From a virus (taxonomy: Duplodnaviria; Heunggongvirae; Uroviricota; Caudoviricetes), in the IMG/VR virus record IMGVR_UViG_2671181056_000012, positions 1-17,566 of that record: 17,566 bases of DNA, one strand, 5' to 3'. Position numbers: made by a program. Position 1 is the stretch's first letter. Each line of letters starts with the position of its first letter. Positions 6,001-15,000 of this stretch are shown here, piece after piece.

Positions 6001-9000
6001 TCTACGGGTTCTTCGACAACACGGTTTAAGCTGTCTTTCATTGCAATGAGTTTATCCCATGACATTTTTGAAAGGACGTAGCGAGAAGCAGCATAGCTAT
6101 AAACCAGACAGTCGAGAGCCTCGTTTCGGGTACTACCTGGATTTTTCACCCAACGCACGCCAGTAGTAGTACGCTTGATGGATTCACTCAAAAGCTGATC
6201 GAGATAATCATCAGGAACGGTTTCTGATATTTCTAAGCCGATGTGAGGATTGTCTTTCAGGTTTCTAACCAGCATTTCACGAACAGCAGATTTCCCAACG
6301 TTAACACCCAACATAAGCAATTCATGACCACCTGTGCGGGTAGGTTTAACCGGAATCACTGGAGCATTACCGGATGAACTACCTTTGATCGCGTGTAGGT
6401 TCTTCCACTTGCCACAAATACGGTATCCGGCTTGAGTGAATCGACCGTTCGATGTATCAAGGAAGCTGGCGAGCATTGGCACACGTTCACCATTAACGTT
6501 ATAGAATTTGGTTTTCTTGAAGTTAACCAGACGATCCCAAACAGGTGATTCATATCGTTCACAGTTATGATCGTAAAAGCTGCGGTGATCCAGAATGTAA
6601 ACCTTATCTTTCGCTACACCTAAGATGGTAGATTCTGCGCGGTCCAATTGCTGGTCGATTCCTGAACACAAGAAAATCACGTCATCAGGGATATTCTCGA
6701 TAGAAACATCTGTTTTGAGTTGTTCCAGTTCATTTGCTTCTACTGCCGTGTCCTGATCGTCGTATACCTTGCCTAACACGGTGTTATAAAATGATTGTAA
6801 ATCAAAGGATTGCCACGCATGACTAAAATCAACCACACAAGCGCGGATCGTGCTGAAAGGTGAATACAGACGGCTAATCCAGAATCCTGCTACTTCACTT
6901 TCACGGGTTGCTCTCCACTCGCCTTGCGCTACTGCCCTGATTCGTTCCCCTTCTGTCCATGCGTTCTTACAATGGGGGCAAATATAACGAGCGGTATCAG
7001 GATCGGGTAAATTCTTACCATCGATGTTACGCCATTCAAACTGTACGTTTTCCCACTCGATCACCTGGTGTCTACCGCAATGAGGACACGGAACAAAAAA
7101 CATACGCATATCACTTGATAACCATTGCTGGTTAATGCTTCCGAGCTTACTGGTCGGGGTACTGGATACGACTAATCGACCTTCATCGCCAAAGGTAGTT
7201 AAACGGTTAGCAGCCAGCGCCACCGGATCACCTTCTTCTGAGGCTGTAGCAGCATCGATTTCGTCAAGCAATCCAACCTTTGCGGTCTTACCACGTAGGG
7301 TTGATGGACTGGTAAGCGATACCATGTACAGGAAGTGATTCGTTTTTAGCTGTAGCTGGTTATTGTTGTTAACCGCATTGCGATCATTCTTGTCTGTAAC
7401 CACGTCTTTTAATGCATCACATGCTTCGATGGACGGTCGGATCTTACCCGCGAGATATTGAGACATTTCTTTAGCGGTTGATTGTCCGATAATCATATTG
7501 CATGGATCGTTAGCCATCTGGTTAAACAGGATACCGTTTAGGATGGTAGTTTTTCCGATCTGCGCACTGGTCATCAGTACATACTTTTTCTTATTCTCAA
7601 GGAAAGGAGCATCAATCATGCCTTTCTGGAATGACAGCAATTTAACTTTATCCCCCGCTTGAGGACCATCTACCAGCACCATATTAGCTTCGCACCATTC
7701 AGAAGGAAGGAGCTTAGGCGGTGGAGTGATATATTTTGCGGCATTTTTAAGAATCTTTTTTAATTTTGCCTTATTTGAAATCAGTTTCATGTAATTACCC
7801 TCATTACGAAATATGAAGGTATTTATTAAATTGTTGATATTTTGATAAATATGGGTATTAATTAAAGGGGGTTGTATGCTAATTAATCAGCAACAAAGAG
7901 ATGAATTAGAATTAGCCTTGTCTTGTACCGATCATGAATATCGTTTGCCAGTTAAGCATAAGCATTTAAAAACCGACTACACTACATCTGGCTTTAGTCG
8001 TGAGGAAGCGAAAGAGATTTTAATAGAGTTTTACCGTGATAATGGCTATAGAGACGTTCACAACTTCTTTAAGAAGCATAGAACATCACATACAGAGTTC
8101 CAGAGAGTCCGAGATTGGTTTGATTTTGATATCAAGCGTTATTATCGAGTGGATGACGGTCCGATCTATCGGTTGCAGTGGACACCGATCCGAGAAGTGT
8201 TGAAACAGAAGAGATTGAATCACGCAATTACACGCTATCGTAACGAGGCTTTCAAGAAAGGCTATGGTGATACAAGGGAACTATTCGTTGAACTCGCTAA
8301 CGTGCGTTATAGCCACTATTACAACGATCCTAAAGGGTTCTTTGAAGTGCTTCGCAAGGTTGATATAAGTCGGGGTACATACTATTCACGGTTGAAGAAG
8401 TACGGGATTAAGGCAGAGTTCTTTATGAGTATTGACGATGGAGAACTTTTTCCGATAAAATGTAAGTCCTCTAAATAAAGGTGAACATTCACTTTAATTT
8501 GGAGAAATGACTATGACTACTAAAGCTACTCGCGGTCGTCCTTGCCGTTTTAACGCTGAACAGATGGCTGATATTGCCTACGCTTACTATACAGCGGATC
8601 GTGGTAAGGAAGCGAAAGAACAGATTCTTAGTGAACATGGGATCTCAATCGCCCAATTCTATAAGAATATGAAGAAGTTAGACATTAAATTCTATGTTCA
8701 GATCGGTGATGGTCAGATCGTAGAAGCAACAGGTTTTTGAGTTTTGATTCTCTTTGCCACTCTTCGGAGTGGCTTTTTTATATCCGCTCAAAAACTGAGC
8801 ACATCTATAGATGGCGCGAAAATTCGCGTGATGTAGATACAAAAAAGCCCCTGAAATTCAGGGGCAAAAATTATCACAGTCCGAAGTGTTCCAGTGATCC
8901 AACATTCTGGCGGAGACGTTCAGCCGCTTTGTTTTGAATCAGAATAGTGTTGTTCGGCTTAGGAAGATTCAGAGTTGCTTTTTGTTCTTCTTCCAGAATA

Positions 9001-12000: not shown

Positions 12001-15000
12001 AAATACAATCCCCATATAAATAATAGTGAGCGGTTAACGCTCTTTTTTAAGAAATCATTAATCCACATTGTAGGAGGATTCGAGATGGCACGACCTGTTA
12101 AGTTCACTCGCGAAATCATCTTAGAAATGGCTAAACGCTACTTTGAGTTAACGCCGGGTGTGAGAATTGAAGAGTGGTTTAAAAATGAGGGTATCGATAA
12201 ATCAACCTTTCATAAACTCTTAAAGAAGTATGACATTAAAGTAAAGATAACCGCAGAGGTTTACTGATACTTTGACTGAGAATTATATGATGGCTTTAAA
12301 AAAAGAAAAAGCCTCCCTTGTTGCAGCAAAGGAGGCTTGAAATGAACAATTAAAACTAACTTTCCACGGAGTATTTATAATGTTATTTTCCGCTAACTTT
12401 TTCACTAACGAAGTAACCAACGCTAAAGCAGTTATCAAATTTGGCACCGAAGCAAACAAGAAGATTCAGCCGAAAGTTGTTGCTCATGTTTCCTTTGCGC
12501 AGCAGAAATCCGCTTTCGCTGGCTTTAAAGCACATCGTGAAGCACTGATCGCGGCTGGCTTTGGTGTTGACGGTAAACTGCCTAACGGCATTCGTAAAGC
12601 AATCGACCGCGTTAAACCTGCTAAAGACGTTGCAGTAGACCACATCGTTACTTTTACCGTTAAGAACTCTTCTGAACTGTTCCACCTGGTTATTGCTGGT
12701 GATACTGCTATCGTTTCCGCTCCTAACATGGATTTTCAGGATACCGCTGATTGCCAGATCACCTTCGGTCGTCGTAAAGAAGTTACCGGAAAAGCTAAAC
12801 TGAACTTCACTAAATCCGGCAATCCTTACTTTGCTGTATTCTTTAACAGCCACGCTACCGAAAAAGAAGTTGTAGAACTGGTTGCTTATGAAGGTGAAGA
12901 GAAAGAACGTATTGAATCTTGCGAAGCATTTCTGGAACTGGAAGCACAGGTGAATGCTGTTTCTCCGGTTGTTGAAGATCGCTTTGCTGCACTGGAAGCA
13001 CAGATCGCAGAACTGAAAGCTGCACTGGAAGAAAAAGACCAGATTATCGAAGCACAGAAAGCTGAGATTGAAGAACTGAAAGCTAAAGAAGTTGCTCCGG
13101 TGGCAGTAGTTGAAAACGCGGCTGATGAGGCCGCAAATGATGAAGTAGAAGTGAAAATCGATGTGATGCGTGATCCGATGGCTGCACTGCAATTACTTCG
13201 TTCTTTTAAGGGCAAATCTCATTTTTCTAGTGATGTAGAAGATGAGGAAGAAGAACAGAAACGCAATGCTGCAATGCTTCATGATGAAATGTACGGTACT
13301 AACTTTTCTTACTGCCAATAAAAAAGGGACTCCGAAGAGTCCCTAGTAAGTTTAGGTTAGGTTTGCACAACAAAGATGAGGTTATAATGAACATAATGCT
13401 ACATTATTCTTTAAAGCCAGAAAAATAACCGCCCCGAAGGGGCGGGAGGATTAATACTCAATCTATACTTGTTATGTTTTTATGTTGTATAGTCACTGAC
13501 TATGAAAACACTGTACTGAATGTGTTTTATGGCTTTTAATCGGGAACTCTCTTTCGAAAATTCCCTGTTAAAACCACATAAGGAGAAATGGCAGATTACA
13601 ATATTATTTAGTCTGTTTGAAAACAAACGTTAAAAATTCGATTAAGCAATATACCCAGCATACAGTAAGCAGTAGATGCATAGAAATAGCCGGATGGAAG
13701 TTAAAAAGTGTCATACTAACTAGGCCAACAATATAAGAAATTCCCTCGACAATTAACGCGAGACTAGAAAATGCAACAAACGCACCTAAGAATAATTCAG
13801 CACGTTCTCTATTTTCGGTTCCGAGTTTATAAGCAGAAATAACAGCCAGAATAGTAATGATGACAGCATAGGTAATAAAAGTAGCCATAGTTTTATATCC
13901 TCTTAAAAGTTAAGCGGGGGATGTTCTCCCCCGTAGACGTTGACCCGTTCAACATCTTTCATACATTTATTTATAACGCGTTTTAAGACACATCAAATTC
14001 ATCGTCTTCTTCTGGTTCTTGTTCTTCCGGTTCATCCATTAATGGTAATTCTTCTTCCTCGTCTTCTCCCAAATCTGCATTTTCGAACAAGTCCCCTACT
14101 TCATTTAAACGACGCTCGATGATCTCCCTTAGCTTATTCTTCAATGTTTTCTGGTCAGTGGCAGATTCGAGAATTTCTAAAGCGTCGATTGTGGCGATCT
14201 GCAAAATAGTCTGCTTCACTTTTCCGCAATATTCCGCTAGTTGCTGTTCTACATACCCGACGGGAATCAGGAGATTCATTGCTTCCTGGTTCTCTCGTTC
14301 GGCTGCGTCCGCTAATGCTCTCTCGCGGCGTAACTTCTCTACGTCGATTTGTTCTTTGACAGTAGCCCCCTCTGTCAGGATAGTTGTCACCCCCATCGAA
14401 AATACTAATGACAAGATGGGAACAGATCGTGAAACGAATTTCACCAGAACGTAAATCGGCTGCACTGGCTAAATTACTACCGCCTTACAACATGACCGTC
14501 ACCGCAGTTGCGCAGATGGAAGGGATATCGGAAGCTACCCTTTATTACTGGCGTAACAAGGCGAAAGCAGAGGGAATACCGGTGCCGGGTGCAAACAAAA
14601 CTACAGACCAATGGTCAGCCGAAGCCCGGCTGGCTGTGATTATCGAAACAGCTACACTCAGCGAAACAGAACTCGCGCAATACTGCCGTAAAAAAGGGCT
14701 TTACCTGGAACAGATTAGTCAGTGGAAACAAGGCTTTTTGCAGGTGTCTTCGCCCACTGACAAAGCGGCGCTCAAACAAAGCCAGAAAGAAGTTAAACAA
14801 CTAAAACGCGAACTGCTTCGTAAGGAAAAGGCGCTGGCGGAGGCGGCAGCGATACTGGTGCTGCGAAAGCAGTTGCGGGATTTTTACGGGGAAACCGACG
14901 AGGACGACTGACGCCCGGAACAGAGCGGCAGGCACTTATCGGTTACGTGCGGGACGCGATGGCGTCAGGAGCTCGGCTGTCAATAGCGCTGACGGAAGCG

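Follow-up and report, generated by a model that had tools for sequence, protein, structure and literature searches.

A stretch of 17,566 nucleotides (nt), positions 1 to 17,566 of the IMG/VR virus record IMGVR_UViG_2671181056_000012 (Caudoviricetes) and hereafter called the window, carries three small genes, here named A, B and C, together with two families of DNA repeats in the same region (the hub; Table 1). The question raised by this locus is whether the three genes encode one family of DNA-binding proteins and whether this family recognises the repeats, as the first-pass annotation had proposed. The reading that we favour, with a probability of roughly 0.65, is that A, B and C form a real paralogous helix-turn-helix (HTH) family which does not set the specificity of the repeats known as iterons, with C belonging to an origin/initiator cassette and A and B forming a separate regulator pair. 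Functionally, the family members are most likely phage transcription regulators or cofactors.

The proposed relationship between three intra-genome paralogues is borne out by both pairwise and profile alignments. B and C are 35% identical over 52 amino acids (aa) at a BLASTP E-value of 2e-8, with a Smith-Waterman z-score of 11 over 2000 shuffles, and in shuffle tests the C-terminal half of A reached z=9.2 against B and z=6.8 against C, its N-terminal half giving z=6.7 against B. Family profiles of A, B and C were made from 27, 17 and 14 homologues, respectively. The B and C families matched each other at E=8e-10 in profile-profile comparison, and the A family (hhalign) matched them at E=2.6e-7 and E=2.4e-8, respectively; the profile of the C-terminal half of A gave E=2.5e-6 against B and E=1e-8 against C. 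On examination of the A-B and A-C profile comparisons, the best-matching part of A was found to be its N-terminal half, from which it was deduced that A holds two modules. The two halves of A also match each other (hhalign E=8.4e-6, 62 columns), and an exhaustive protein search matches one representative of the A family in two separate stretches. There are four module copies in three proteins, two in A and one each in B and C. The initial description of A as a protein with a single C-terminal module was correct about that module and missed the second copy at residues ~38-100. Likewise, the GRP motif said to be shared by all three occurs in B (RGRPCRF) and C (ARPVKF) and is lacking in A, and the 77-aa open reading frame (ORF) reported for B exists, but its start is most likely the ATG at 8513, giving 75 aa, since a GGAG at 8501 is well spaced from it and homologues begin with MTTKATRGRP. 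A hidden Markov model (HMM) of B and C, run on the window and on the remainder of the ~37-kb prophage to which the window belongs, detected no additional paralogue. With ratios of nonsynonymous to synonymous substitution rates (dN/dS) of 0.10-0.19 for A, 0.12-0.19 for B and 0.09-0.10 for C (0.09-0.19 overall), all three are real genes under purifying selection.

Each module comprises ~55-60 residues, with three helices preceded in B and C by a basic N-terminal arm, (G)RP-x-(K/R)-F. In the AlphaFold models the three helices have the spacing expected of an HTH, and a pattern of three helices followed by a C-terminal β-hairpin is seen twice in A and once in B (helices 17-29, 34-43 and 48-57; strands 63-66 and 70-73), C consisting of three helices and ending in a short strand. 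The predicted local distance difference test (pLDDT) score is 85-90 inside the modules, and the model of A has a mean pLDDT of 75 and a predicted template modelling (pTM) score of 0.66. A is the product of an internal duplication and probably acts as a single-chain pseudo-dimer, and B probably pairs through its hairpin.

The first-pass annotation had likened the motif to HTH domains of recombinase or terminase type, and a recombinase/transposase-type HTH is backed by distant relatives, by sub-threshold Pfam matches and by the three-helix models. An exhaustive HMMER search with the B and C profile against 1.84 billion representative proteins (E<=1e-3) returned 19 proteins in all, which, besides the family itself and two short C-like proteins, were long proteins made of tandem HTH repeats. 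As the Pfam labels of these repeats are exclusively HTH_23, HTH_28, HTH_Tnp_1 and HTH_7, the distant matches support a transposase/resolvase-type HTH. Sub-threshold Pfam matches of the family fall in the same HTH families, and the B homologue of Edwardsiella carries a canonical GVSTATLYRW motif. At the level of fold and superfamily the module is thus probably a tri-helical HTH of the transposase/resolvase type, divergent in sequence and extended by a hairpin.

Assignment to a particular known family finds no such support. For HTH_Tnp_1 (PF01527), C scored 19.1 bits (E=0.0015) against a gathering threshold of 24.1 bits and A and B gave no match; only 3 of 23 members of the B and C families matched at E<=0.05, the Edwardsiella B homologue scoring 15.6 bits, in contrast to the 56.8 bits of a genuine IS3 OrfA in the same window. 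For HTH_7 (PF02796) the best scores were 14.8-14.9 bits (the C-like protein of locus L003 and the B-like protein of L045) against 23.8 bits, and the B and C profile aligned to an approximate sequence of the DNA-binding domain of Hin with an hhalign probability of 6.8%. Searches of Pfam, NCBIfam and the PDB for initiators of the Rep_3/RepE or lambda O type gave no match for A, B or C, nor did the anti-phage defence models of PADLOC. Sequence searches of the PDB returned nothing for the three proteins, and no structural neighbour was found in the PDB or BFVD. A has 43 homologues in E. coli, Salmonella and Proteus, every one labelled hypothetical. Against 50,697 phage genomes, tblastn gave no match with A or B, nor with two proteins described below, the 313-aa one whose gene follows C and a 204-aa one of a T4-like phage, and profiles of C and A found nothing in 185,579 species-representative genomes. 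Judged by these searches, the family is an orphan, lineage-specific group of small putative DNA-binding proteins.

Considering the arrangement of the hub, it is tempting to let each paralogue recognise a related site in the repeat arrays, namely the 13/21-bp iterons and the 24-bp repeats. In favour of this, the HTH modules bear an arm like that of Hin, in which the GRP arm contacts an A/T tract, and a CAAAAAT tract lies inside the iterons; moreover, C is situated downstream of the array, A has two modules like iteron-binding Rep proteins, and the CTAG repeats, into which the 24-bp repeats resolve, have not been matched to any protein. Comparison of relatives speaks differently. The sample comprised 33 related loci from IMG/VR as well as E. 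coli, Salmonella, a Proteus-like genome, Edwardsiella and metagenomes, and in 30 loci the class of iteron could be compared with the protein encoded immediately downstream of C. Class I iterons (TTTCAGGGGCAAAAAT, the class of the window) accompany a 313-aa type of this protein in 16/16 loci, and this type is absent from the other 14; class II iterons accompany a 331-aa type in 12/12 loci and a third type is matched in 2/2, so that iteron class follows the downstream protein in 30/30. The resulting 16/0/0/14 table gives p=7e-9 with loci treated as independent, which, being related, they are not. The genes of the trio behave otherwise. Identical C proteins occur with class I and with class II iterons, iterons identical to those of the window are found even where A is only 52% identical (L004) or B 70% identical (L005 and others), and the iteron-like palindrome near B is present whichever class of iteron the locus has. 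Iteron classes were paired with C cassettes in at least six ways, against only three ways for classes of the downstream protein. Similarly, the 330-aa downstream protein of Salmonella and its 204-aa counterpart in the T4-like phage are homologous (E=1e-17) and have similar iterons, CTAGGGATA vs CTAGCGATTA.

Since iteron class follows the downstream coiled-coil protein and not A, B or C, we infer that this protein of 313-340 aa is the iteron binder and that iteron specificity maps to it. Recognition of the 13/21-bp iterons by the HTH family, as proposed at first, is not upheld, and a repeat-reading role for the paralogues now appears quite improbable. The downstream protein has 313-340 aa in the typed loci and 313-377 aa over L003, L005-L037, L043-L045 and the window. 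In the window its N-terminal domain has an isoelectric point of 9.5; database searches with the protein returned coiled-coil matches only, and a scan of IMG/VR for more copies of the coiled-coil family gave no confirmed match. Further iteron classes among the relatives include TAGTGTAGGTTT, CTAGGGAT at 11-bp spacing, ACTAGTAAC, TTCAAATGCTAC and others. The CTAG repeat resembles the main iteron of one relative (L044).

Gene C had been placed right after the iteron array. Its start, however, lies ~515 bp past the last iteron, and two near-consensus promoters and a leader of ~400 nt intervene. The cassette runs in the order GC-rich hairpins, iteron array, strong promoter, AT-rich leader, C and the iteron-linked coiled-coil protein, and a C-like gene precedes the coiled-coil protein in all cassette versions. 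Within it, the promoters, the leader and C occupy ~800 bp between the iterons and the coiled-coil gene, and the stretch at ~11550-12300 is swapped as one block, whichever iterons and downstream gene flank it; the companions of C are its promoter and leader, not the protein encoded downstream. The cassette also occurs outside the prophages. A T4-like contig of 168 kb (L038, ENA ERZ27275837) has an insert of ~1.7 kb at 4894-6625, between genes 3 and 2, which are neighbours in T4. The insert contains GC-rich hairpins, at least ten 11-bp iterons of the form (T/A)AGCGATTAC, a sigma-70-type promoter, a 64-aa C-like gene, the gene of the 204-aa protein homologous to the Salmonella counterpart and that of an 80-aa coiled-coil protein.

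C is thus the gene nearest the promoter in a portable cassette that most likely serves as a replication-origin/initiator module, and C itself is most likely either an autoregulator acting on its accompanying promoter and leader or a generic cofactor of the iteron protein. Taken strictly, the second option says that C is no transcription factor at all but a factor with, for example, an architectural or loading function at the origin, working through conserved parts of the protein or through DNA structure. The constant position of a C-like gene before the coiled-coil protein, even in the lytic T4-like phage, and the interchangeability of C alleles across iteron classes are what such a cofactor would lead one to expect; yet C co-segregates with its promoter and leader and not with its supposed partner, and small HTH genes that head rep operons are usually autoregulators. 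We consider the strict form doubtful.

A wider proposal is possible, although we hold it only tentatively: the C-type HTH may be a universal part of an undescribed portable phage module, a self-contained origin/initiator whose specificity cassettes are swapped among temperate enterobacterial prophages and which a T4-like virulent phage has also taken up, with A and B as duplicated derivatives of the same HTH recruited to regulate the rest of the phage. The parts of such a module might be GC-rich hairpins, an array of 11- or 21-bp iterons, a strong early promoter, an AT-rich leader, a C-like HTH gene, an iteron-specific coiled-coil protein from a new family and sometimes a small coiled-coil protein. 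The T4 origin oriE with repEA/repEB was considered as the same system and rejected, as these are tiny ORFs antisense within gene 5, though oriE has 12-nt iterons.

Several elements of the leader are kept even in distant relatives (L003 13450-14006; L019, L021), namely CTCTTTAGCAATTCGTGCT, TGTATAAATACA, a hairpin GGGGTTG...CAATCCCC and the terminator-like hairpin. A leader variant, b, has a TTGACA-N2-TGTCAA palindrome across its -35 box. No Rfam match was found in the hub, the AT-rich leader included. The sequence ATAAATAY, common to the promoter region of A and the leader of C, was examined as a shared site and is not enriched over chance.

A and B stand apart from this cassette. They form an isolated two-gene unit, oriented opposite to both neighbours and closed by a terminator-like hairpin. 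B had been described as lying beside the Rha gene; more precisely, B and Rha are convergent, each with its own terminator. The alignment of the intergenic region between TerL and A contains a near-invariant stretch, ATT-T(T/A)GATAAATA(T/C)GGGTATTA, and this region probably holds the promoter of the unit. In Edwardsiella (L045), A and B are absent between Rha and TerL and found between the iterons and C, with A split into two ORFs. The position of the pair in the genome is not fixed, and it is movable. Alleles of A track neither those of TerL, nor the origin region, nor those of B. We regard A-B as a separately transcribed pair of probable regulators.

Whether such a pair would serve the lytic cycle or the prophage state can be weighed from the same observations. 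An immunity repressor or a moron-like regulator of lysogenic conversion, expressed from the prophage, would suit the isolation and reversed orientation of the unit, its conserved upstream region and its own terminator; the repressor-like size of A, the absence of A-B from this position in Edwardsiella and the fact that no CI/Cro-type repressor is recognisable anywhere in the prophage point the same way. But the A allele of L004, 52% identical and with different putative recognition helices, stands beside early promoters and an origin region the same as those of the window, which is unexpected for an immunity repressor, and in Edwardsiella A-B lies inside the rightward early cluster. A purely prophage-expressed role is therefore judged unlikely.

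Because A-B adjoins TerL, the modules might also be accessories of packaging or recombination, such as a small-terminase-like factor recognising cos or a directionality factor of the serine recombinase. Weak, sub-threshold similarity to HTH domains of terminase and excisionase type occurs among the distant matches, and some of the directionality factors known for serine integrases are small. Nevertheless, A, B and C have no PHROG or Pfam terminase match and a separate Nu1-like small terminase subunit (phrog_57) is present; among the families of excisionases and recombination directionality factors the sole match was HTH_17 at 14.8 bits, below threshold. Moreover, the Edwardsiella A-B pair is not beside TerL, A alleles vary independently of TerL alleles, and a C-like gene occurs in a T4-like phage, which has no integrase. 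Such a role is hardly credible.

Weighing the favoured reading of an HTH family with C in an origin/initiator cassette and A-B as a regulator pair, the following points count against it. Scans of A, B and C with Pfam, NCBIfam, PHROGs and PADLOC gave nothing above the curated family thresholds, and the sole indicator of the pseudo-dimer packing proposed for A is the pTM score. As for the origin/initiator part, DnaA boxes show no enrichment, and a helicase loader could not be recognised. Comparative footprints yield no derivable operators for A, B or C, and the linkage between C and its leader could reflect physical adjacency only.

The host element is a prophage, found in 58 of 5,426 complete E. 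coli genomes and on the chromosome every time. Megablast of the window against the 50,697 deposited phage genomes gave no match, its TerL has at most 43% identity to the large terminase of any cultured phage, and searching the literature for a prophage in ycdX turned up nothing of relevance. The ~37-kb element of strain PSJ-22 is inserted in ycdX beside ghrA. The large serine recombinase by which it integrates is encoded at its left end, together with two CapR-domain proteins and a UvsW-like helicase; then come tail and head genes, the hub and, at the right end, the gene of the Nu1-like small terminase. Among relatives the gene order of the hub is conserved, yet the hub is strongly mosaic; the trio keeps its synteny across E. 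coli, Salmonella, a Proteus-like locus and a metagenome contig. With no recognisable regulator of CI/Cro type in the prophage, A, B, C and Rha are its only candidate regulators.

Table 1. Features of the hub and its flanks in the window (dot, no strand assigned)
Feature	Position	Strand	Description
TerL	5883-7790	-	
TerL-A intergenic region	7791-7875	.	Conserved even beside A alleles of 47-52% identity (alignment)
Gene A	7876-8478	+	200 aa, two HTH modules
A module 1	7987-8175	+	Residues ~38-100; helices 42-56, 61-67, 72-82; strands 86-92, 97-99 (AlphaFold)
A module 2	8266-8454	+	Residues ~131-193; helices 134-147, 152-161, 166-175; strand 180-186 (AlphaFold)
Gene B	8513-8740	+	75 aa (77 aa from 8507); single module, RGRPCRF arm, β-hairpin
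Terminator-like hairpin closing the A-B unit	8756-8773	+	
Rha-like gene	8874-9698	-	
110-aa and 150-aa ORFs		-	After the Rha-like gene in hub order
Non-coding DNA	10696-12084		1.4 kb
24-bp repeat region	10958-11195	.	Resolves into two 10-bp CTAG units (ATCTAGWAWC); 8 CTAG sites in region
Class I iteron array	11320-11570	+	9 matches vs 0.33 expected by chance
Two strong sigma-70-like promoters aimed at C	11606-11663	+	TTGACA-17-TATACT and TTGACA-18-TATAAT
AT-rich leader	11664-12084	+	25-39% GC; terminator-like hairpin 12028-12042 just before the ribosome-binding site of C
Gene C	12085-12267	+	60 aa, single module, ARPVKF arm, one short terminal strand
Gene of 313-aa protein, putative iteron-binding partner	12380-13321	+	Basic N-terminal domain, coiled coil, acidic tail
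94-aa ORF, then small terminase gene (-)			After the 313-aa gene in hub order
Small terminase gene, C-terminal part	13983-14465	-	
Small terminase gene, N-terminal part	15939-16169	-	

Some further observations concern the surroundings of these genes. The spacer between B and Rha (8780-8870 in the window, and in L001-L037) consists of short hairpin units of the form stem-AAAAYT-stem followed by ATCTATAGAT, whose number varies by locus, the spacer measuring roughly 85 to 320 bp. An iteron-like palindrome at 8847-8865 proved to be the terminator of Rha, present in loci of either class, I or II, and its reading as a distal iteron was rejected. In the window the Nu1-like small terminase gene (13983-16169) is split by an IS3-family element (OrfA 14384-14911, OrfB 14947-15942), and the prophage of the window is therefore probably packaging-defective; in L001 the gene is unbroken and encodes 188 aa. 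Just beyond the prophage end lies a HicB-like antitoxin gene (16823-17173, minus strand), and upstream of it a short ORF (17218-17352, minus strand) was taken as HicA-like but has no Pfam match; both are absent from this position in L001 and L004. ARAGORN predicts a tRNA-Gln (anticodon ttg) at 997-1087 on the plus strand, inside a 142-aa minus-strand ORF of the head-gene region, which is possibly a false positive. The left end of the prophage is represented by L002 (13048-19445), where one CapR-domain protein has a MUG113/GIY-YIG-type nuclease domain. In the Edwardsiella relative (L045, 11413-15852) a reverse-transcriptase-TIR gene and a GGDEF gene lie between the small terminase gene and ghrA, which gives this end of the prophage the look of a defence or cargo island.

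A family of small HTH paralogues in a phage is ordinary on its own, and the domain type to which the family defined here belongs is a very common one; the family itself is a new, unclassified variant of narrow distribution, with its four modules spread over three proteins. The three genes are retained together in one prophage lineage, which occurs in ~1% of complete E. coli genomes as well as in some genomes of Salmonella, Edwardsiella and a Proteus-like group. As the only recognisable regulators of the phage, A, B and C together with Rha provide an entry point to its control of lysis-lysogeny and of replication. The comparison also moves the likely seat of iteron specificity from the tempting HTH assignment to a new family of coiled-coil proteins, and the modular, exchangeable iteron cassette common to prophages and a T4-like phage is a more unusual finding than the HTH family itself.

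Comparison with known systems places the family near several of them and inside none. With HTH_Tnp_1 (IS3 OrfA), HTH_7 (Hin/resolvase) and HTH_23/HTH_28 it shares a length of ~50 residues, three predicted helices and a putative recognition helix of the GI(S/D)xxT(F/Y)(Y/H)K type followed by KKY, and B and C have the N-terminal (G)RP arm that Hin carries. Unlike these families, however, no member exceeds a curated threshold, A and B have the extra C-terminal β-hairpin, and the modules are free-standing, with no catalytic partner domain and with three paralogues in one phage. The position of C recalls that of small HTH/RHH regulators at the head of replication operons, such as CopG/CopR in rolling-circle and theta plasmids, or Cro/CII before lambda O-P: a protein of 60 aa encoded by the first gene after a strong promoter by the iterons and directly upstream of the putative iteron-binding protein. 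No relationship of sequence or fold to those proteins was detected for C, though, and what lies ahead of C is a 400-nt AT-rich leader that contains a terminator-like hairpin. The two modules per chain of A, in a hub with an iteron array, are reminiscent of RepE, pi and RepA (Rep_3, with two winged-helix domains) and of lambda O; in contrast to these, A has no similarity to Rep structures (Foldseek against the PDB) or to Rep_3 and does not co-vary with the iterons, the iteron-linked protein being an unclassified coiled-coil protein. A parallel to the make-up of A may be found in P4, whose late activator Delta is a covalent duplication of a small activator module (cf. Ogr of P2). A is likewise a tandem fusion of a module of which B and C, from the same phage, have one copy each, with the difference that Delta and Ogr are zinc-finger proteins whereas the present family is of the HTH type.

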